From positions 32,001-96,000 of the forward strand of contig CAVYZN010000005.1 in assembly GCA_963773065.1 (NCBI GenBank): a DNA stretch of 64,000 nucleotides. The letters are read 5' to 3'. Below the pieces are notes generated by a model. It did not search any database. It was not told the DNA's origin and worked only from the letters and a program-made list of their open reading frames with translations. Below, in pieces: positions 24,640 through 62,245 of the stretch (positions within the stretch are counted from its first letter, which is position 1; the number at the start of each line of letters is the position of its first letter). The stretch is from an uncultured Gammaproteobacteria bacterium (GTDB lineage Bacteria; Pseudomonadota; Gammaproteobacteria; UBA9214). A program made the position numbers and the translations under genes.

Positions 24640-26895
24640 TCAGGCAAGCCGTGAAATCAGGTTTTCCGCCTCGATCTTCTGATCGTCATTTCCTTCCTCA
24701 AGCACCTCTTTCAGGATGCCCCGGGCTCCGTCGGGATCACCCATGTCCATATAGGCGCGCGCGAGATCAAGCTTGGTGCCTATTTCATCGCTGCTGTCCA
24801 GCAGTCCTTCGGCGAGGGATCCTTCCTCTTGGTTGAGATCCAGTGCATCGAGATTGAAATCGACGTTTTCAGCATAATCGCCGGTTCCCTTCACGCCGCC
24901 TTCGTAATCAAGCCCGATGTCGTTGCCGGCGGGATTTCCAGCGGCGGGACTTTCCTCCATGCCGGTGAGGTCCATACCAAATTCCACGTCGCTTTCCTGA
25001 ACCGCGCGCAGCGTTATGGCCGCCTGGTATAAGGGGTTGGCGGGTGAAAGTTCGTAACCCATGCCGGCAACCCTGCGCCAATCGGGATCACTCTCGCCGA
25101 CCGTTTCGCGGAACACGGCCGCCTGGGCGTCGAAAGCGGCGGTATTGCCGGCGGCGTGATAGATCTCCAACAGTTTGATCTTGAGATCACGGCGATTGGG
25201 GTTGCCGTGCAAGGCGTTCTTGATGACGTCCTCCGCCTGTTGCACCCGCCCGTAGGCGATAAACACATCCGCTTCCGTCAATGGATCGCTCGCATCATCA
25301 CCCTGTAATGGTCCCATGTCATCGGCGGAGAAATCGCTGAACAGCGTGTCGTCACTGACGGCAACACGGTGCCTGACAGGCGGCTCATCATTACGCGCGG
25401 CAGACATCTGACTCGCGAGCGTTGGCTCCTCATTGAATATGTCCTCCGTTTTGCGCTGCCGGGTTGACGCCCACAGGAATCCGCCCAGGATCATTGCGAC
25501 CAGTACGCCCAGTCCGGCGAGTACCGGATTGTCCAACAGACGATCGACAATCCCTTTGGGTTTGCCGTCATCGCGGCCATTTGCAGCGGGAGTCGTCCTG
25601 GCCAGCGTTTCCCCCGACGCCGCCATCTGGTCACTTGCCGGTGCTTGCGCCTCGGATGAAGTCTCCTCTGCCGTATTGGCTGAAGGTGTCTGATTTTGCG
25701 TCGCGAGCCTGTTCTGCAGGTTCGCCAGTTGTTCGTCTTTCAGTTCAATCAGGCGTTGCATGCTGGTGACCTGTTCTTCCAGTTTGCTGACACGGGATTG
25801 CAATTCCTGCGACTGTGCGCGACCCGCCTCTGCCTCTTCGGTTGCGAGTGACAACTGCTGGAGCAGTGCTTGCGAGTCCGGCGCCTGCGCCGCACCGCTT
25901 GCAGGTACACCGGGAGCAACGGCCCCTTTGATGGTCTCGTCCTCAGGTGCGACCAACTGCAGGCGGGACTCCACTGCAGGCTCGGCTTTGGGCTCGGTGG
26001 CGGTTTCGGTTTCGGGCTCGGGGGCGGAAGCCGGCTGTCCTTTCGGCGCCATTTCGGGTGCTCTCGCCTGCTCTGTAGGACGTTCAGCGCCGCGGCCCTG
26101 TTGCCATTCGGTATATTGACGGCTGGCTTCACGTCGCGCGGCGGATTGGTCCAGCGACAGAATCTCGTCTCGCTGGGGAATCTGCAGGGTCACGCCGGCC
26201 TTCATATTGTTGATGTTGTTGTTGACAAAGGCATCCGGGTTCGCGCGCTGCAGGGCGAGCATCATCTGCTGAATGCTGATATCACCGCCGGGACGAACGC
26301 GCTTCGCAATATCCCAGAGAGTCTCGCTGCGTTTCACCGGACCATAATTATCGGCACCCCCAGAGGCGATTACCGGGGCGGGCGCAACGGTTGCCGGCCT
26401 CGCCGCCGGTACTCTGGCGAGAGGCGGGGCCTGCACGGCTTCGGGGGGCGGCGCCTGTCTGACTAAAGGGGCTCGCGGAGCCGGCGGAATTGCCGGCATT
26501 GTGACCGGCGGATCGACAAGCAGCGTATATTGCCTGAGCAATCGGCCCTTGCTCCAGGTCGCCTCGATCAGGAAATCCAGATAAGGTTCGCGCACAGGCT
26601 GCCGGGTGGTAATGCGGATGACCGGCTTGCCGCCCGGAAGCTGCTCAACATTGAATTGAAAGTCCTCCAGAATGGCCGGCCGGGAGACTCCCAGTTTGTC
26701 AAAGGATTCCCTGGATGCGATGGTGACCTTGAGTTCTTGAAGTTCCTCCTTGCTCGCCGAGGTAAGCTCGACATCGGCACTTAACGGGTCGTTCAATGTG
26801 GAGTGGATTTCGATGTCGCCGAGTCCGATCGCCAGAACATTCGAGCTTGCCGTCAAATACAGCATGGCCGCTGCGACTACTGCCTTTCTAAACAT
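24640..26895 (-). CDS. fimV: FimV/HubP polar landmark protein
   Basis: GLGDI N-terminus, LysM-like TLWDIA...NPDAF, transmembrane segment, C-terminal TKLDLARAYMDMGD. asd-fimV-truA order. Confidence 0.93.
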   Translation of the reverse strand: MFRKAVVAAAMLYLTASSNVLAIGLGDIEIHSTLNDPLSADVELTSASKEELQELKVTIASRESFDKLGVSRPAILEDFQFNVEQLPGGKPVIRITTRQPVREPYLDFLIEATWSKGRLLRQYTLLVDPPVTMPAIPPAPRAPLVRQAPPPEAVQAPPLARVPAARPATVAPAPVIASGGADNYGPVKRSETLWDIAKRVRPGGDISIQQMMLALQRANPDAFVNNNINNMKAGVTLQIPQRDEILSLDQSAARREASRQYTEWQQGRGAERPTEQARAPEMAPKGQPASAPEPETETATEPKAEPAVESRLQLVAPEDETIKGAVAPGVPASGAAQAPDSQALLQQLSLATEEAEAGRAQSQELQSRVSKLEEQVTSMQRLIELKDEQLANLQNRLATQNQTPSANTAEETSSEAQAPASDQMAASGETLARTTPAANGRDDGKPKGIVDRLLDNPVLAGLGVLVAMILGGFLWASTRQRKTEDIFNEEPTLASQMSAARNDEPPVRHRVAVSDDTLFSDFSADDMGPLQGDDASDPLTEADVFIAYGRVQQAEDVIKNALHGNPNRRDLKIKLLEIYHAAGNTAAFDAQAAVFRETVGESDPDWRRVAGMGYELSPANPLYQAAITLRAVQESDVEFGMDLTGMEESPAAGNPAGNDIGLDYEGGVKGTGDYAENVDFNLDALDLNQEEGSLAEGLLDSSDEIGTKLDLARAYMDMGDPDGARGILKEVLEEGNDDQKIEAENLISRLA

Positions 26896-26992
26896 ACCGA
26901 TCACCTCTGTTGGACAGTCTCTGAAGGCGCGCGCCGTAACTCCCTGACCAGCCAACCTGGCAGGCCAGGGAACCAATCCTGCGAACTATAAC

Positions 26993-28016
26993 TTACAAGT
27001 AATCTTTCACCAAGATTTCAGCAATCTGGATGCTGTTGAGGGCCGCACCTTTGCGCACGTTATCGGCGACGACCCACAGGTCTAAACCTCTCGGATGCGA
27101 GATGTCTTCCCGGATCCTGCCGACGTAGACCGGGTCATGATTGGCCGCCTCCGTAACCGCTGTCGGATAACCGCCGTCCCGGCGTTCATCGATCACCACG
27201 ACGCCGGGGGCGTGCTCAAGCAAGTTGCGAGCCTGCTCGGCGCTGATCTTATCCCGCGTCTCGATATGGACGGCCTCGGAGTGACCGTAGAACACCGGCA
27301 CCCTGACCGTAGTCGGATTGACCATGATCGTATCGTCTTCCATGATCTTCCTGGTTTCCCAGACCATCTTCATCTCTTCCTTGGTATACCCGTTCTCCTG
27401 GAACACGTCGATGTGCGGCAATACGTTGAAGGCGATCTGCTTCGGATAGACTTCCGCCTTGATGGAATTGCCGTTCAGCAGATTCGCCGTCTGGCCCGCG
27501 AGTTCCTCGATGGCTTCCTTGCCGGTACCCGATACCGCCTGATAGGTACAGACATTGATGCGTGTGATACCAACCGCATCATGGATCGGCTTCAGCGCCA
27601 CCAGCATCTGGATGGTGGAGCAGTTCGGGTTCGCTATGATGCCGTGGTTGGTGTAATGCTTGATCGCCCAAGGATTCACCTCCGGAACCACCAGCGGAAT
27701 ATCGTCCTGGTAACGGAACTGGGAGGTATTGTCGATGACGACGCAGCCAGCCTTCGCCGGCAAGCGGTGCGTACTTTTCCGAAATGGAGGCCCCGGCGGA
27801 GAAAAGCCCGATCTGTACCCGGGAAAAATCAAAGCTGCTCAAATCCTGAACGGTGAGCATCTTTTTACCAAAGGGTACCTTCTTGCCGGCGGAGCGTTCG
27901 CTTGCCAGGGCATAGACATTGTTGACCGGAAAATTCCTTTCCGCGAGGATTCCCAGCATCGCCTCGCCGACTGCACCGGTTGCTCCCACGACTGCCACAT
28001 CAAATTTACGTGTCAT
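26993..28016 (-). CDS. asd: Aspartate-semialdehyde dehydrogenase, with a +1 frameshift near 27758
   Basis: VGATGAVG in ORF 27579..28016. VIDNTS, NPNCSTIQ and DNVRKGAA in ORF 26993..27832. Confidence 0.95.
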
Positions 28017-40421: not shown

Positions 40422-41358
40422 TTACGGCAGGTTGTCGAGCTGCGCGCCTTCCTTCTTAGCCGGCATCATGTCTTTGCGCGATATGCCGAGCCACATGACT
40501 ATCGGGCTTGCCACCAGCACCGAGGAATAAATGCCGAACAGGATGCCGATGGTCAGGGCCAGCGCAAAGTAATGCAGCGTCTCGCCACCGAAGACCAGCA
40601 TGGATAACACGGCAAGCTGCGTGCAGCCGTGCGTAATAACGGTGCGCGACATCGTTCGGGTAATCGCGTTATCGATGATCTGCGGTATGCTGGCCGCGCG
40701 CATCTTGCGGAAATTCTCCCGGATCCGGTCGAACACCACCACCGATTCGTTCACCGAGTAGCCGAGAATGGCGAGTACCGCCGCCAGCACCGTGAGCGAG
40801 AAATCCCACTGAAAAAAAGCGAAGACAACCGAGGATGATGACCACGTCATGCAGGTTGGCAATGATCGCCGCAATACCGAACTTCCACTCGAAGCGGAAC
40901 CAGAGATACACCACGATGCCGATGGACACGAACAGCAGCGCCAGGCCGCCATTCTCGACCAGCTCGCGGCCGACCTGCGGCCCGATAAACTCGGTACGCC
41001 GCAGCTGCGCCGCGGTGTCGGCGCGGTGCAGGACCTCCATCACCGCTTCGGCCAGCTTGGCGCCGCCCGCATCCGCCTTGGCCGGCAGGCGGATCAGCAC
41101 GTCGCGCGAGCCGCCGAAGTTCTGCACCGTGACGTCGGCGTAGCCGCTCTGCTCCACCAGCGAGCGGATCTTCTGCAGATCGGCGGTCTGCGGGTAACTC
41201 ACCTCCATCACCGTGCCTCCGGTGAAGTCCACGCCGAAGTTGAGCCCCTTGGTCACCAGAAAAAATACCGCGAGCAGAAACGTGATCATGGAGATCACGT
41301 TGAACACCAGCGCATGGCGCATGAACGGGATGTCTTTTCGTATCTTGAAGAATTCCAT
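40422..41358 (-). CDS. secF: Protein translocase subunit SecF, with a +1 frameshift near 40828
   Basis: GVDFTGG, GPQVGREL and HDV in one frame. GYSVNESVVVFDRIREN in the next. Confidence 0.95.
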
Positions 41359-55555: not shown

Positions 55556-56059
55556 TTATCTGGCGGAAATACCGAAGTAGGCAAATACCAGCGTCACCAC
55601 CAGCATCGCCAGAAGAAATATGCGCAGCGGCTGTCTTGGTTTATTGTCCGTACCAAGTCGGTTATGGGGTAGGTAATTCAACAGATTATATTTGAAGAAT
55701 TCGGCGTTGCTGTCCAAGCGACGTCGATCCGGTGAATTGCGCCTTTCTTCGGGGGGTGCTTGCAGGCATTTCCCCTGCCGCCCCCGGCGTTCCTCCAGAC
55801 GTTCGTCCACCTTCATGCGCGCCACCACCAGTGCCTGGTAATCCTCCCAACTGGACAGTTGCAGCAGTTCCTCAGGGAACAGGTCCGGGTAATCTCCAAC
55901 CGGTCGCCACCTTATACGGTCCTGACTCAGTTCATCCTTCAGCCCGATGCGCCCGAGCAGGATATAGCGCGCGACGTTTTCATCCGTGAAGGGGCCCCGA
56001 ACGGTACCATTACGGCGAGCATACCACCGGTTGCCGTTATTCGAATGCGCCATGGCCAT
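55556..56059 (-). CDS. Hypothetical membrane-anchored protein with a GYF_2-like N-terminus, an ERR/DRR-rich linker and a C-terminal transmembrane helix
   Basis: WYARRNGTVRGPF...LGRI...W pattern resembles GYF_2. Hydrophobic C-terminus. Same strand as fliA, 30 nt downstream. Confidence 0.7.
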   Translation of the reverse strand: MAMAHSNNGNRWYARRNGTVRGPFTDENVARYILLGRIGLKDELSQDRIRWRPVGDYPDLFPEELLQLSSWEDYQALVVARMKVDERLEERRGRQGKCLQAPPEERRNSPDRRRLDSNAEFFKYNLLNYLPHNRLGTDNKPRQPLRIFLLAMLVVTLVFAYFGISAR

Positions 56060-56089
56060 AGCGACAGTCTGCCTTGTTACCGTTCGATG

Positions 56090-56820
56090 TCAGTCCTTGA
56101 GCCACTCTTCCATGCGTGCCCGCAGACGAATCAGCGCCTGGCCATGAATCTGGCATACCCGTGACTCACTTACACCTAGAATCTCGCCGATTTCACGCAG
56201 ATTGAGTTCTTCGTCGTAGTAGAGCGCCATGACCAGCCGTTCGCGTTCCGGCAGTCCCTTGATCGCCTTGGCCAGGCCCTGCTTGAAATCATCATTCTGC
56301 AGATTATCGAGAGGCTGGTTCAACTGGCGGTCGGAGCCACGAAACCCTCCTCGCCCAAGGTCCCGGGATCATCAAAACTGAAGATGCGGCAGCCGGTCGC
56401 ATCCTGGAGAATCTTGTGGTACTCGTCCAGGCCGATTCCCATCGCTTCCGCTACTTCAACATCACGCGCATCGCGGCCTTTCTCATTCTCTATTTTGCGC
56501 ACCGCCTCGGCGACCTCGCGCGCCTTCCGATGCACGGACCGGGGGGTCCAATCGGTTCGACGGATTTCATCAAGCATGGCTCCGCGTATCCTGATGCCCG
56601 CGTAGGTCTCGAAACTGGCCCCCTGTTCCGGGTCAAAGTTCCTGGATGCTTCAATCAAGCCGATCATACCGGCCTGAATCAGATCGTCAGCCTGGACACT
56701 CGGAGGCAAGCGGCTCAGCAGGTGAAACGCAATGCGTTTGACCAGCGGTTCGTGCGACGTGATCAGATCGTTTTTATTGCGATGCAGTTTCACTTCAGCG
56801 GTGACTGTATTACCCTTCAT
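56090..56820 (-). CDS. fliA: Flagellar sigma factor FliA (sigma28), split by a -1 frameshift near 56325
   Basis: DDLIQAGMIGL, FETYAGIRIRGAMLDEIR and DWTPRSVHR in ORF 56320..56820. LPERERLVMALYYDEELNLREIGEILGVSESRVCQIH in ORF 56090..56323. Confidence 0.93.
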
Positions 56821-56930
56821 GACCTTACCTCCATCTCGACGTTGTTTCGGTGAAGCAAGCGTTCGATGAAAAATTCAAGGTGGCCCCGCAGGCTATGCTG
56901 GCGTGGCCAGTTAGCCACCCGCCTCGACTT
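56817..56930 (-). pseudogene. flhG: 3' remnant of flhG/fleN (C-terminal 37 residues)
   Basis: Hand translation KSRRVANWPRQHSLRGHLEFFIERLLHRNNVEMEVRS* resembles the FleN/FlhG tail (WP...RGHLEFFVERL). Its stop overlaps the fliA ATG (ATGA). In-frame TAG upstream at 56946-56948. Confidence 0.8.
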
Positions 56931-56956
56931 ACATCTTATGTAGTCCTAATTAACAG

Positions 56957-56971
56957 GCAACAAATGTACCA
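56957..56971 (-). promoter_or_regulatory. Sigma54 promoter in front of the flhG remnant and fliA
   Basis: TGGTAC-ATTTG-TTGC, exact GG-N10-GC spacing. Confidence 0.75.
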
Positions 56972-57074
56972 ATACTGGAATTGTTCCTGCTTGGACATCA
57001 AAAGGCATCATAACGTACTGTATTTAAAGAGCTATGAACTACATTGAAGGCTCATTCAAAGAACCATGTACTGC

Positions 57075-57088
57075 GTCATATTTCTGAC
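57075..57088. promoter_or_regulatory. Candidate FleQ-binding box
   Basis: GTCATATTTCTGAC (GTCA-N6-TGAC) resembles the Pseudomonas FleQ box and lies about 105 bp upstream of the sigma54 -24 element. Confidence 0.55.
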
Positions 57089-57323
57089 TTCATGAGGATG
57101 AGTCGTGCGTTTGTGCCATGAAATTTTTGTACCATGAAATTAATGAGCAGATTTCATGAATTGCCTTTGAACCATTACACGCGACTGACGCCGAGAAGAA
57201 AGTGGGCTGTAGCTGAAGGCTGTCAGATATCAAGAGCAGGAAAGGCTGTGCCCTGTGAACTGAACGTATGCTGCCGTGGTTATAGGTTTTCGATACCGCG
57301 AACGGCAATCGAATGCAGGCCCG

Positions 57324-59588
57324 TTACGCCAGGGGGGAGGATGATGCCTTTGCCAGCCAGCTGGCGAAGTGTTCTTTGGGTAGCGGATGACTGACATGGA
57401 AACCCTGTGCTGAATCACAGCCTAGATTATTCAGCATGTCCCAGGCCAAGACGCTTTCAACACCTTCGGCCACAACCTTGTAGCCAAGGTTGTGGCCCAG
57501 ATCGATGATCGAGCGCACAATGGCGATATCCTGGTTGTCGAAGGCAACATCGATGATGAATGACTGATCAATCTTGAGTGTGTGGATAGGCAGCCGTTTC
57601 AGGTAGGACAGGGATGAATAGCCGGTACCGAAATCGTCAATCGCAGTACTCACACCGAAATCGGATAACCTGGCCAGTACATCTGCAGCCCGCTCCAGGT
57701 CGAGCATCAAGGTTGCTTCGGTAATCTCGATCTCGAGATTCTCCCCGCTGATCCCCGCTTCCTGCAGAGCCCATTTGATCTTGTCCACCAGTCGCGGGCT
57801 CTGAAAGGATCGTGCAGAGACATTCACGGAGACCGGGACCGTGGTCCCGTTGTATGCCCATTGTTTGCACTGCTGCAGTGCCGTAACCAGAACCCAGTCA
57901 GTTATCGGGGATATCATCCCCAGCTGTTCGGCAACGGGGATGATGCGCTTGGGAAACACGGTTCCTTCCAGGGGGTGCTGCCAGCGCAGTAATGCCTCGG
58001 CGCCGGTAATCAGCGATGTCCGCAGATCCACCTGTGGCTGGTAGTGCAGCACAAATTCATTGTTATCGAGCGCACTCTGGATCTGGCCCGAATAGCGCAG
58101 CTGTTCGGCCGGACTGACATCGCTTACCGGGTCGAAATACTGATAGGGCAAACTGTTTCGCTTGGCGCGATACATCGCGCTCTCTGCGTTGGTAAGCAAC
58201 GCCTCCTCGTTCGCGCCATGGTCGGGGAAACAGGCCACACCTATTGTTATGCTGACACACAGCTGTTTGTCCGAACAGGAGAATGGCATATCGAAACAAT
58301 CAAGCACCTGGGTGATCACGCGTTCCGAGGCGGTTCTGGCGTCATTAACGGGTGAGAGGAGAATACCGAACTGATCGCCACCGAGGCGGGCCAGGGAGTC
58401 CGATTCGCGCACGACAGATCTGAGACGATCGGCAATCTCCTGCAGCAGCAGATCGCCGATATCGCGTCCCAGTGTATCGTTGTACATCTTGAAATGGTTG
58501 ATATCGAGGGAAATCACCGCGACCTGTGATCCAGGCACTCGTCGTGAGGACGCCAATGCCAAATTCAAGTGATCGGCCCACAGCGTCCGATTCGGCAAAT
58601 GCGTCAAGCTGTCTGTCGTGCTCAACTGCTCAAGCCGTTTGCGTTCACTGATGGCATGATTGATATCTTCAAGCAGACAGTGGATCTTAACCGGGCGGCC
58701 ACGCTGATTCAGGGACGGATACAGCGACAATCGATACCAGTGTTCAAATGCATCATCCAGGGATATCCGTATTTCACTGGCAGAGGTATTGCCGTTGACC
58801 GCTTCCTGCCATGCCGTCAGCAGCAACTGCTGGTCCTCGGCATGCGTGTTTTGCAAAAATGGAAATGGTGCCTCTATCCCTTCTGGATAAAGTGCGTGTA
58901 ATGGATAATTGGCATACTGAACCCGGTTACTCTTGATATCCACACTCCAGAGCAATTGCGGCAGTTCTGACAGGAGGTTCTCGATACTCGCATGCTGTTG
59001 GCATACGTGGGCCAATTCTCCACGCGCCTCGTCCAGCGAGGCGTTCCAATACCCCTCGGATATCAGGCCGATATCACGCAACGACAGTTTCACAATGACG
59101 GATTCCAGCCGGTTTCGATCCGCAGTGCTAATATCCTGTTCAGCCACTAGATTACGAAGGAAATCCATTAACAGTAGGTATGCGCCCGTGACCCAGACCG
59201 GCTTGATCCCTCTTGCGTAGCGTGTCTCGCCCTCGCGAATCAGTTCCATTTCACGTTTCCCATCCTCCTGGACAGAAAAGAGTTTGAGCATGAAAGTGAG
59301 TTCTTCACGAATCGTGTCGCTGACATCGCCACCCTCACGCTCATCCGCATAGAGAACATCAGCGATATCGGGATTATCGAAGAGGTAGTTGTAATAGACC
59401 TCGGCAAATCGTGCTGTGCCCGCAGCAACAATTTCCCGGTATTGACTCAGAAATGCCAGATCATCATTAGAAATATGAAGAACATATTTATATTCCTTCA
59501 CATGAAGGTCTGGTCTGGATTGCTGATCAGGATCACCAGCACATCCACTTCCGCTCCCCCGTCGACTATTCTTGTTTTTCTCTGCCAT
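57324..59588 (-). CDS. Globin-like sensor-PAS-GGDEF-EAL protein, probable c-di-GMP phosphodiesterase
   Basis: Protoglobin-like N-terminus (FAEVYYNYL...GIKPVWVTGAY), PAS-like segment, TDSLTHLPNR, RxxD then GGDQF, EAL with EITE, DDFGTGYSS and AEGVE. Confidence 0.9.
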   Translation of the reverse strand: MAEKNKNSRRGSGSGCAGDPDQQSRPDLHVKEYKYVLHISNDDLAFLSQYREIVAAGTARFAEVYYNYLFDNPDIADVLYADEREGGDVSDTIREELTFMLKLFSVQEDGKREMELIREGETRYARGIKPVWVTGAYLLLMDFLRNLVAEQDISTADRNRLESVIVKLSLRDIGLISEGYWNASLDEARGELAHVCQQHASIENLLSELPQLLWSVDIKSNRVQYANYPLHALYPEGIEAPFPFLQNTHAEDQQLLLTAWQEAVNGNTSASEIRISLDDAFEHWYRLSLYPSLNQRGRPVKIHCLLEDINHAISERKRLEQLSTTDSLTHLPNRTLWADHLNLALASSRRVPGSQVAVISLDINHFKMYNDTLGRDIGDLLLQEIADRLRSVVRESDSLARLGGDQFGILLSPVNDARTASERVITQVLDCFDMPFSCSDKQLCVSITIGVACFPDHGANEEALLTNAESAMYRAKRNSLPYQYFDPVSDVSPAEQLRYSGQIQSALDNNEFVLHYQPQVDLRTSLITGAEALLRWQHPLEGTVFPKRIIPVAEQLGMISPITDWVLVTALQQCKQWAYNGTTVPVSVNVSARSFQSPRLVDKIKWALQEAGISGENLEIEITEATLMLDLERAADVLARLSDFGVSTAIDDFGTGYSSLSYLKRLPIHTLKIDQSFIIDVAFDNQDIAIVRSIIDLGHNLGYKVVAEGVESVLAWDMLNNLGCDSAQGFHVSHPLPKEHFASWLAKASSSPLA

Positions 59589-59655
59589 CTGGTTTGTTGC
59601 TTTATTATTTAGTGCCAATTAATTGGCATATGTATTTGAAGGCACATGCGGACTG

Positions 59656-59670
59656 GCAGGACACGTGCCC
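59656..59670 (-). promoter_or_regulatory. Candidate sigma54 promoter of the globin-GGDEF-EAL gene
   Basis: GGGCACG-TGTC-CTGC, GG-N10-GC spacing, about 68 nt upstream of the ATG. Confidence 0.5.
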
Positions 59671-59900
59671 AAATATTGTTTAATAAATACATGCCAACCC
59701 GCTATCTCACAGAAAGCTGTTGCGGGTGTATTTCTGTATAGAAATGTGCAATGGAATAGATAGCCCCATTGATTATTATTCTATTAAGCGGAATCTATCA
59801 CAGTCGAAGGTACGTATAAAGACTGATTGGGCATAATACATGGGGAAAGGAATCCATAGATCAGAAATTCTGCATGCAAAACCGCAAAATGATCCCGGAG

Positions 59901-61331
59901 TTATGACATGGCGGCGACTCTTTGCAATCCATATTTCCGCAATTTCTCTACCAGAGTGGTACGACGCATGCCCAAACGTTTTGCCGCATGGGCGACCACG
60001 CCGCCGGTATCATTCAATGCTTGCTTGATGTAATTAATCTCCAGGGTACTGAGGTGTTCCTTCAGATTCAAACCGTCGCGAGGCAGGCGTGGATCGAGAT
60101 CGTCAGAAGTAACTGGAGTACCGACTAGCGCCTCTCCAATCAGTTCCATATCAATTTCTTCATCAAGTTTGAACTTTTCGGGTAAGTCACCGGCTTCCAC
60201 GACCCCGTAGGGATGCAGGATGGCCAGGCGTTCTATCAGGTTTGCAAGTTCACGGACATTTCCTGGCCACGTGTACTGACAGAGGGTATAGATTGCACCG
60301 GGTGATAATCTGACCGAACCACGTCTTTCATGCTCGATGCGTCGTACCAACTCATTGACGAGAAGAGGGATATCCTCTAGCCGCACACGTAATGGCGGCA
60401 TTTCTATCGGAAAAACGTTTAGTCGATAGTACAGGTCTTCACGAAATCCACCGTCTCTGATTGCCGATTCGAGATCCCGATGCGTTGCCGCAATTATTCT
60501 CACATTTGTTGTAAGGCTTGTATTGGACCCAACCCGTTCGAATGTTCTTTCCTGCAACACCCTCAATATCTTGACCTGCATAGCAAGGCTCATGTCACCG
60601 ATTTCATCAAGAAACAGCGTGCCACCCTCGGCCATTCCAAAGCGTCCTTCGCGCGCGGTGATAGCTCCGGTGAAAGCGCCCTTTTCGTGACCGAATAGCT
60701 CGGATTCCAGCAAATCAGCAGGAATTGCCCCACAATTCACTGGTACAAACGGTTTGCCACGACGCGCGGAGTGGTAATGAAGATTTCTTGCAACAACTTC
60801 CTTGCCTGTCCCCGACTCACCGAGGATAAGTACATTCGCCTCACTGTCAGCAACCTGTTCAATCATTTTTCTGACGTGCTGAATTGCACGGCTGCTCCCT
60901 ACCAGGCTGCGAAAGAGATCAACCGGCCGATGAGTTGTTTCGGACAGGCGATGCGATTCGGCATAAACCTCCGCCCGATGGATCGCACTCGTCAATTGTG
61001 CGTAATTGGGAGGAATATCGAGACGACCGAGAATGCAGGATCCTGAATCGATTGTGACGGTTGGCTCTCTACCCTTCTGACTCAGCAGATAGATGGGAAG
61101 ATTCTCATTGAACTGATGGATCTCGTTAAGCAACATGCCAAGCCTGTTGTCTGCATGACACGATCCCACCATCACGGCCAGGATATCGGGAGCATCCTGT
61201 ACCGACTGTTCCCATAGCAAACAATCATGTACAACAATCGGTGAATAGTTGATGAACTTGAGAATTGCACACAGTTCCTTTGCATTCTCCGGATCAGCCT
61301 CAATTATCAGAACCTTGGGATCATTTAGCAT
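59901..61331 (-). CDS. fleQ: Sigma54-dependent activator FleQ/FlrA
   Basis: FleQ-type N-domain, LFRS, ARN and ExxxR c-di-GMP motifs, [15 protein letters not shown]-terminal [15 protein letters not shown]. Confidence 0.93.
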
Positions 61332-61938
61332 TTGTTTTACCTAAGGAATTATCTGGCCTGCCGATTATTCTAAATTCTTGACGATATTTAAAGTTTTTTT
61401 CACTTTCTCTCAATCGAGCTACCTAGCGGTTTAAAATAAAGTCAAATTACCGTCATATCCACACCGGAAATCGGTAATGATTTAAAATCAACAGATGTAC
61501 AGGATCCACTGATTGCGTTCATATTTACATTTACGCATGATGAGCATTATATCAGCCCCGAAAAAAAATACTCCCTCGCCTGAATCATTTATTCAGGTTA
61601 CGTCATTGTGTCGGGCACCCCCTGAAAGGCTGACTTCTACACGCCGACTTTCATCTGCCCTCAACCCTCATACTCCTCCGGGATTGCAAATACTGACCGG
61701 ACCATCACTTCATCTAGACACCCAGTACGCGCAAATTACCCTTGAGTCCAAAATTCACAATGGAAACCATACAGCACAAACCTAGGTCGGTCACTTGAAA
61801 AAAGTCGAGGGTACTTACCATGTTGATCTGCCACATGCGGCAGTCCATAAATAGCGAGCGAATAAACATTGGTGTGATCGCGACCGACTGAGTCAACTTC
61901 GAAACCTGAAACTCTGGAATGCCGAAGCGTTTTTGGAT

Positions 61939-61954
61939 TGGCACTTTGTGCGCA
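61939..61954 (+). promoter_or_regulatory. Candidate sigma54 promoter upstream of flgM
   Basis: TGGCAC-TTTGT-GCGCA, GG-N10-GC spacing. Confidence 0.5.
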
Positions 61955-61971
61955 TAGCCACAAAAATTCGT

Positions 61972-61998
61972 TAAACTACGAAAATCAACAGACGATAA
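61972..61998 (+). promoter_or_regulatory. Sigma28 promoter upstream of flgM
   Basis: TAAA-N15-GACGATAA, one mismatch to TAAA-N15-GCCGATAA. Confidence 0.75.
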
Positions 61999-62077
61999 CC
62001 TAGCATGTGTCATGGATGAACAAACAAAGACTTGGAACCAAATTCGAAAAGCCCACGAAAGATAACCTGGACACAAT

Positions 62078-62245
62078 ATGTTCAATAAGTTGCCTAATTC
62101 TCCTGAAATTGATGATCGCCGAATCAATATCATTCGCACACAACTTGATGAAGATATCTATGTCGTGAATAGCCGTCAGATTGCGGACAAAATAATTGAC
62201 ATCGAGCTTGCACTTTCAAATTCAAAGAAACCATCCAATTGCTGA
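62078..62245 (+). CDS. flgM: FlgM-like anti-sigma28 factor, C-terminal half only (55 aa). May start at 62016 if one base is missing
   Basis: Hand translation MFNKLPNSPEIDDRRINIIRTQLDEDIYVVNSRQIADKIIDIELALSNSKKPSNC matches the FlgM pattern PE(V/I)DxxR(V/I)xxI(K/R)...YxV(N/D)xxxIAxK. Sigma28 promoter upstream. Below the ORF-track size cutoff. Confidence 0.78.
   Translation: MFNKLPNSPEIDDRRINIIRTQLDEDIYVVNSRQIADKIIDIELALSNSKKPSNC

Follow-up and report, generated by a model that had tools for sequence, protein, structure and literature searches.

Why should a bacterium without flagellar genes keep the genes that regulate them? The persistence of flagellar regulators without flagella is an open question, raised here by positions 55556 to 62245 of a 64-kb stretch of DNA (the window) from an uncultured gammaproteobacterium. 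This segment carries fleQ, fliA, a short flgM (mini-flgM) and a remnant of flhG (fleN), along with a globin-EAL gene and a gene for a GYF-type protein. The window is part of contig C5 of a 3.84 Mb genome assembled in 33 contigs. The analysis described below suggests that the retained locus probably now controls a pilus-based (twitching) sensory system, by way of a sigma-28 promoter predicted upstream of the chemosensory operon pilG-pilJ.

The host genome was compared with 24 genomes of the same family: four from its own genus and five, one, eight, one and five from genera g2 to g6, respectively. Domains were called by Pfam profile search of the open reading frames (ORFs) of the window. Nineteen family fleQ loci were fetched, five of them from flagellated genomes; in 18, the contig continues past the globin-EAL gene. 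Contigs from public runs (X1, X2, X4 and X6) were aligned on the window locus as an independent check.

Loss of the flagellum and ancestry of the locus

Pfam analysis of the 64-kb window found no flagellar, motor or chemotaxis gene, and profile searches of the host genome with Flagellin_N, FHIPEP, Flg_bb_rod and FliG_C returned no match for any of the four. Within the family, FHIPEP is found in 7 of the 24 genomes (0/4 in the host's own genus, 0/5 in g2, 0/1 in g3, 5/8 in g4, 1/1 in g5 and 1/5 in g6) and FliG_C in six, again in none of the four same-genus genomes. The flagellated relative G017 has a supercluster at about 89.7 to 140 kb of its contig C9, including fliD, S, T, F, G, H, J, K, L and M, flhB, flhA, motAB, flgN, M, A and D-L (Pfam-confirmed within the 80 kb examined). 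When the 84 ORFs of this stretch were compared with the host genome, the flagellar ones gave no match or generic matches only (26-46% identity). The genes on the left of the cluster correspond to C33:55956-62288 of the host, and the first gene on the right to C33:62756-62971. The syntenic site thus lies on a single host contig and spans about 470 bp, as against about 56 kb of flagellar cluster in G017. Since the two flanks are this close on unbroken C33, the flagellar genes are truly missing, and a gap in the assembly is not the cause. An MSHA-like pilus cluster adjoins the flagellar supercluster of G017; this pilus/secretin cluster (G017:C9:145-159 kb) is likewise without an orthologue at the host site (C33:62756-63581).

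The host assembly has a completeness of 90.9% and a contamination of 6.3%, figures that limit any claim of absence and would allow for flagellar genes hiding in the unassembled 9%, or for a chimeric block at the locus. Either is hardly credible, given the adjacent flanks on C33 and the lack of FHIPEP and FliG_C in the other genomes of the genus. Misassembly is further opposed by the collinearity of the window with 62 kb of a contig from the same-genus genome G002, and by the independent contigs covering the locus.

The initial annotation had held that the flagellar apparatus was lost and that this loss left its regulators condensed into a single locus with new partners. The elements it listed (fleQ, fliA, a short flgM, the flhG tail and the associated motifs) were all recovered by Pfam and motif reading, and the loss is borne out by the results above. 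The gene order in relatives tells a different story about the rest. Orthologue-level FleQ (70-89% identity) is found in 20 of the 24 family genomes; the other four, which are fragmented assemblies, yielded paralogue-level matches only. In all 19 fetched loci, the globin-EAL gene comes next after fleQ. A MinD-type ATPase gene of 295 to 322 codons (FlhG/FleN, its deviant Walker A motif reading GKGGxGKT in relatives other than G001), fliA and, directly after it, the GYF gene then follow in each of the 18 loci reaching that far. Mini-flgM, divergent and upstream of fleQ, has the same start in 17 of the 19. Overall, the order flgM(mini)/fleQ/globin-EAL/flhG/fliA/GYF is kept in 18/18 loci, five of which are from flagellated genomes, and the locus is intact in G010, a closed 2.6-Mb aflagellate genome. 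Because flagellated relatives share this order, the partners and the separation from the structural genes predate flagellar loss; neither condensation by loss nor recruitment of the globin-EAL and GYF genes as new partners can be upheld.

Each of the five flagellated relatives has a single FliA orthologue, encoded at this locus (82-84% identity, next matches 29-31%), and the locus holds their sole fleQ and fliA. These identities mark the window fliA as the gene of the flagellar sigma factor itself and exclude a paralogue. Two FlgM matches occur in four of the five: a protein of about 105 residues encoded in the flagellar cluster, and the mini form beside fleQ. On balance, we lean towards the view that this is the family's ancestral motility master-regulator locus, surviving the deletion of the flagellar cluster.

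Selection on the locus was gauged from the ratio of nonsynonymous to synonymous substitution rates (dN/dS), calculated on orthologues with our own Nei-Gojobori script, the neighbouring Memo gene serving as control. Among three aflagellate same-genus genomes, FliA shows 0-5 nonsynonymous against 44-62 synonymous changes (dN/dS 0.00-0.02), and the parts of fliA present in the window give 0.01-0.04 against same-genus relatives. The other own-genus values are 0.05-0.14 for FleQ, 0.01-0.18 for mini-FlgM, 0.10-0.14 for the EAL gene, 0.21-0.30 for FlhG and 0.15-0.36 for the GYF gene, with 0.13-0.20 for the Memo control. Over three aflagellate genera, fliA and fleQ remain at 0.0-0.14 with dS of 0.3-2.4 (dS approaches saturation in flagellated g4 and in aflagellate genera other than the host's), and flagellated relatives are alike. 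Two sets of estimates, those of AMMECR1 in g1 and g2 and of the EAL gene in g2, were discarded, as dN exceeded 1, probably through codon-alignment artefacts. Strong purifying selection on fleQ, fliA and mini-flgM in aflagellate genera indicates that these regulators are maintained by selection without flagella. It also makes it very improbable that the entire circuit is a functionless relic on its way to loss. Such a relic would fit the flhG deletion of the window strain and the lesions of a congener, G001 (both described below), as well as the few family genomes, fragmented assemblies, in which fleQ or fliA was not found. The low ratios, matching those of flagellated relatives, speak against it, and so do the conservation of promoters and FleQ-like box and the intact locus of G010.

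Predicted promoters and their targets

A scan of the host genome with the sigma-28 pattern TAAA-N15-GACGNTAA yielded two sites only, both intergenic: one precedes mini-flgM and the other, TAAAGTTTGCCTTAGGGTGGACGATAA, lies 135 nt before pilG. According to Pfam, gshB is followed here in a row by pilG-pilH (CheY-like), pilI (CheW) and pilJ (methyl-accepting chemotaxis protein with a PilJ N-terminal domain). The sequence TAAAGTTTGC-N9-GACGATAA is found upstream of pilG in 24/24 family loci, that is, the host and 23 relatives (G005 was left out, its contig beginning within pilG). Across the family the -35 and -10 elements do not change, and the spacer and flanks vary. Outside it, the same promoter was found in only 6 of 80 gammaproteobacterial pilG loci, among them family-like metagenome-assembled genomes (MAGs), two MAGs of Thiohalobacter and one of Thiogranum. 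Flagellin genes of the flagellated relatives are preceded by a motif of the same class, TAAAG-N14-GACG(T/C)TA, in five of seven loci, and the two loci without a sigma-28 motif are downstream tandem copies. The host genome also carries PilB/PilT-type ATPases, minor pilin genes and FimV.

Other scans were less useful. The strict pattern GCCGATAA gave no exact and 22 one-mismatch hits in the host genome, about the number estimated from base composition, and was uninformative until replaced with the family -10, GACGNTAA. Exact TAAA-N15-GACGATAA returned little beyond pilG and flgM in five relatives, being too strict to define regulons.

Several observations made along the way concern the same class of sites. 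Some 3 to 40 nt past the -10, the leader of pilG contains another conserved block (C..TGTAG...A....CAATA.TAA, 80% consensus), possibly an operator or a regulatory element in the RNA. Two sigma-28-like motifs in the host genome are candidates: one at C9:57705-57731 (minus strand) precedes a fimT/U-like minor pilin operon by 252 nt, and one at C5:130094-130120 (plus strand) lies 256 nt ahead of an ORF for a 154-residue arginine-rich membrane protein. In G017, an HDOD-GGDEF gene (C9:121489-123165) lies inside the flagellar cluster, and a 27-nt motif TAAA-N15-GACGATAC starts 31 nt upstream of its ORF; judged from this arrangement, the gene ties the cascade of flagellated members to c-di-GMP (cyclic di-GMP) at a second point. 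The window itself encodes, among housekeeping genes, a FimV-type protein (24640-26976, minus strand); FimV serves type IV pili and flagella as a hub at the cell pole.

The second predicted sigma-28 target is mini-flgM (62078-62245, plus strand). Its TAAA-N15-GACGATAA motif (61972-61998, plus strand) lies 79 nt before the gene, and an equivalent motif is present at the same position in all 17 of the relatives' flgM upstream regions compared. The product, 55 amino acids long, matches PF04316 with 29.1 bits (cut-off 25) over profile positions 18-55, in the C-terminal sigma-28-binding domain. An in-frame stop five codons upstream of the start rules out a longer product. The N-terminus of FlgM carries the signal for export through the flagellar apparatus. 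Mini-FlgM is without this export region, relatives' full-length FlgM measuring about 105 residues, and it is the sole FlgM match in the host genome. Two tRNA genes come after it. A 141-codon ORF at 61714-62139 (minus strand), antisense to mini-flgM and its promoter, is probably spurious: it has no Pfam match and can be aligned only in part with relatives. Just 5′ of the sigma-28 promoter, at 61942-61965, is a conserved element, CACTTTGTGC-N6-CCACAAAA, whose left half, CTTTGTGC, occurs in all 18 upstream sequences compared; we take it to resemble a CRP/Vfr-type TGTG-N8-CACA site. A TGGCAC-like motif at 61939 was rejected, its GG not being kept in relatives.

The flhG-fliA operon, in turn, appears to be driven by a sigma-54 promoter, TGGTACATTTGTTGCC (56956-56971, minus strand). 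The pattern TGGTAY-N5-TTGC stands ahead of flhG in 19/19 family loci, and rpoN was found in the host genome. A FleQ-like box, GTCAGAAATATGAC (57075-57088), lies 117 nt upstream of the promoter. Boxes of the form GTCA-N6-TGAC with an A/T-rich centre and at most one mismatch occur in 16 of the 19 loci, placed between -113 and -118 and perfect in nine, and the window as a whole has five FleQ-like boxes, compared with 0.99 expected. The box in the window resembles the FleQ consensus sequences published for P. aeruginosa, GTCaNTAAAtTGAC, and P. putida, GTCAaAAAAtTGAC (both as given in PMC6120874). The host genome has 229 loose sigma-54 matches; three come with a box, and at the flhG-fliA site alone is the box perfect. 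A sigma-54 motif considered for the globin-EAL gene (59655-59670) is not kept in relatives and was dropped.

FleQ itself is encoded at 59901-61331 (minus strand) and belongs to the c-di-GMP-binding type of sigma-54 enhancer-binding protein, with domains PF06490 FleQ (59.2 bits), PF00158 Sigma54_activat (248 bits) and PF02954 HTH_8 (48.1 bits). Such proteins contact c-di-GMP through LFRS, an R/N following Walker A and an ExxxR motif. All three are present in the window protein, whose LFRS, KEVVARN and NELVRR (NELxxR) segments are aligned to P. aeruginosa FleQ; the match to the latter (PDB 8p53) is full length, with 545 bits and residues 4-471 aligned.

The gene next to fleQ (57324-59618, minus strand) encodes a 764-residue protein with Protoglobin, PAS_4, GGDEF and EAL domains by Pfam, the Protoglobin match (PF11563) scoring 32.2 bits (cut-off 25). 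The cyclase motif GG(D/E)EF is degenerate, reading GGDQF in the window protein and in 17 of 20 orthologues, while EAL, DDFGTG, EGVE and KID are intact in the window protein and EAL and DDFGTG are kept in all 20 orthologues. For this reason the protein is probably a gas-sensing c-di-GMP phosphodiesterase and not a cyclase. At the other end of the locus, the GYF gene (55556-56059, minus strand) specifies 167 residues with a hydrophobic C-terminal stretch; its GYF_2 score, 18.6 bits, is below cut-off.

Taken together, these features suggest the following cascade. The globin-coupled EAL phosphodiesterase would set c-di-GMP in response to gas, and FleQ, binding c-di-GMP and acting at the box 117 nt upstream, would activate the sigma-54 promoter of flhG-fliA-gyf. 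FliA would then read two promoters: that of mini-flgM, whose non-exported product would provide negative feedback, and that of the chemosensory operon for type IV pili, pilG-pilH-pilI-pilJ. Kept in this way, the cascade would govern twitching and no longer swimming. FlhG is a flagellar counting factor. To the further proposition that this second, pilus-directed output (sigma-28 directly transcribing Pil-Chp) alone preserved the circuit, with hardly a change, in several lineages independently losing the 56-kb cluster, FlhG becoming dispensable, as its clean deletion in the window strain would show, we give somewhat less than an even chance.

A number of points weigh against the proposed cascade. 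The wiring is read wholly from the conservation of motifs. The scan of the host genome found no further FleQ/sigma-54 targets. The two sigma-28 sites equal in number those obtained with a reversed-pattern control (two), so that only the position and conservation of these sites carry weight. Finally, the Atlas matches of the GYF protein are hypothetical proteins only, some with GYF_2. What holds of the initial claim that the circuit was kept and repurposed is thus the part supported by purifying selection and by conserved sigma-28 promoters at non-flagellar genes, without the condensation and the new partners it had included.

Lesions in flhG and fliA

The window differs from the arrangement found in relatives at two places, both relevant to whether the sigma-28 arm still works in this strain. 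The first is flhG. Only 503 bp separate the EAL gene from fliA, compared with about 1,220-1,340 bp in relatives. The alignment indicates that some 800 bp of flhG were deleted; what is left is the sigma-54 promoter together with the final ~40 of 295 codons (~56820-56939, minus strand; tblastn aligns query residues 256-295 only), without the deviant Walker A ATPase domain. The fliA ribosome-binding site was retained, and the FleQ/sigma-54 promoter now stands 135 nt ahead of fliA. The flhG-deleted form is also found in X1, where a 658-nt contig that differs from the window at 21 places spans 56793-57455. The deletion, seen independently in this contig and unlike the 1-nt indel errors described below, is real. 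A contig of X4 departs from the window at 56926 and runs on into flhG sequence, showing that sister strains still have the gene. The contigs from RNA libraries (X4 and X6) also cover fleQ and the EAL gene; they were not used as evidence here, as contigs cannot show transcription.

The second lesion is a frameshift in fliA, due to one missing base at 56334/56335. The initial annotation made no mention of it, nor of the degenerate GGDEF motif and the doubtful status of the 141-codon ORF. The 5′ part (56320-56820, minus strand) encodes sigma-70 regions 2 and 3 by Pfam and ends at a premature TGA; the 3′ part (56090-56323, minus strand), in the +1 frame, encodes region 4 (Sigma70_r4, 67.5 bits) and is 94-99% identical to relatives' FliA. 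Regions 2, 3 and 4 are thus split over two frames instead of forming a single chain. Of 22 relatives with a match, 20 have fliA intact, and contigs of both X2 and X4 carry an extra base at 56334/56335 that restores the frame.

Could the split be real and the two parts function as separate chains, regions 2-3 and region 4 assembling on RNA polymerase? The TTG start of the region 4 part overlaps the TGA stop by four bases (TTGA), and both parts are perfectly conserved. Yet a single chain is found in sister strains and relatives, and an assembly error is the simpler account of the split; we regard a two-piece sigma factor as extremely improbable.

Signs of assembly error are not confined to fliA. 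Pfam analysis showed asd (26993-28016) and secF (40422-41358) each to be split into two ORFs. When 71 ORFs of the collinear G002 contig were compared with the window, five matched in two or three frames: fliA, ppiD (~1777), cysS (~10331), an ORF of 464 codons and one of 277 codons. Nucleotide alignment identified the breaks at ~1777, ~10331, ~13894 and ~21132 as single-base indels. A gene for a DAO-family oxidoreductase is also split, on contig C9 (L118:3797-4760). In all, at least seven of about 55 genes in the window are broken, essential ones included. This amounts to an uncompensated indel about every 9 kb, a rate at which the chance of hitting a 729-nt gene is about 1 in 11. Because essential neighbours are broken alike and the window fliA shows no relaxed selection, the frameshift is doubted; we consider it somewhat more probable that it is an assembly indel than a real, recent lesion.

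The alternative is a strain-level decay of the sigma-28 arm, with deletion and frameshift both real. FliA would then be dead or reduced to regions 2-3, pilG and flgM would lose their sigma-28 drive, and of the circuit just FleQ and the EAL protein would still function. The evidence in favour of decay, which is also evidence against a working cascade in this strain, comes from two sources. Window and X1 are without the base that X2 and X4 have: at 56334, X1 has 0 insertions at a depth of 3.7 among the indel rows listed. Read literally, the count speaks for a real frameshift that the flhG-deleted strain has as well, and, X1 being flhG-deleted too, the lesions may travel together. The frame read-out of X1 is discounted, however, since it extends to the indel rows listed and the X1 depth is below the smallest single-run row among them. 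The second source is G001, whose fliA (contig C62) has an independent 1-nt deletion near codon 39, whose FlhG has a Walker A of GSEGLGKT in place of GKGGxGKT, and whose EAL gene contains a stop; these lesions could be real decay within the genus, or another error-prone assembly. Opposed to decay are the uncompensated 1-nt indels in at least six other window genes, asd, cysS and secF among them, the dN/dS of the window fliA given above and the fact that the deletion spared both the promoter and the fliA ribosome-binding site, along with the ambiguity of the X1 read-out. Decay of the sigma-28 arm thus seems unlikely to us, though far from negligible. The initial annotation had named a locus in mid-decay as its alternative; this holds for flhG only, where the deletion is confirmed, since the frameshift in fliA may have arisen in assembly.

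These results carry a caution for work on similar material. A frameshift in a long-contig MAG is not readable as decay when essential genes nearby are equally broken, and pseudogene calls in this genome need read-level confirmation, since the assembly appears to be indel-prone.

Relation to known systems

Flagellar regulators without flagella are already known in outline from non-flagellated Legionella (PMC5655016). L. israelensis and L. londiniensis keep fleQ, fliA, fleN and flgM, and in L. oakridgensis functional FliA and FlgM are all that is left, with flgM sigma-28-dependent; according to that review, no FliA-dependent virulence target had yet emerged in L. oakridgensis. As in Legionella, the structural flagellar genes are gone here with the same four regulators kept, flgM has a sigma-28-type promoter (here a motif only) and export of FlgM via the basal body is impossible. 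The differences are that the host belongs to another, uncultured gammaproteobacterial family, that its four regulators sit in one locus with the globin-EAL and GYF genes, that its FlgM is a 55-residue paralogue, occurring beside full-length FlgM in flagellated relatives, and that a candidate output, the pilG operon, can be named from a conserved promoter.

The upstream part of the predicted cascade recalls the FleQ-FleN circuit of Pseudomonas (PDB 8p53, 5exx), with which it shares full-length FleQ homology, the c-di-GMP-contact motifs, a box of the form GTCA-N6-TGAC (PMC6120874) and a sigma-54 promoter ahead of fleN(flhG)-fliA. In P. putida the operon reads flhA-flhF-fleN-fliA (PMC6424431), whereas here flhA and flhF are lacking upstream and che genes downstream. 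Moreover, fleQ adjoins the globin-EAL gene and not fleSR, flhG is deleted in the strain and the organism is without a flagellum.

As for the output, FliA of Bdellovibrio controls a Tad/flp pilus operon, as tested experimentally (PMC5430801), and so sets a precedent for a flagellar sigma factor driving a pilus-related operon, which here is predicted. That operon is for a type IVb (Tad) pilin in flagellated predators; the pilG-pilJ operon is chemosensory, relates to type IVa pili in an aflagellate organism and is linked to FliA by motifs only. The WhiG/RsiG pair of Streptomyces (PMC12871210) offers another case of a sigma-28-family factor used in a non-flagellar programme and tied to c-di-GMP, in non-motile actinobacteria. 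There c-di-GMP works via the anti-sigma factor, whereas here the presumed sensor is FleQ, upstream of fliA transcription. The literature searched contained no report of sigma-28/FliA control of pilG, or of type IV pili via pilG. Four elements appear to be new here: the sigma-28 promoter predicted before the Pil-Chp operon throughout the family, a FlgM paralogue reduced to a non-exported mini form, the pairing of fleQ with a globin-EAL gene and a natural flhG deletion.

For the biology of the family, the locus physically links a predicted gas-sensing c-di-GMP enzyme to FleQ, and the predicted sigma-28 regulon is minimal, consisting of two promoters. Flagellated and aflagellate relatives, together with a strain without flhG, amount to natural experiments on such a circuit. 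To the question of why flagellar regulators persist without flagella, the pilG-pilJ operon brings a concrete candidate target: its predicted promoter, present in every family locus counted and in few of the others, therefore offers a testable reason why the regulators may have been retained.

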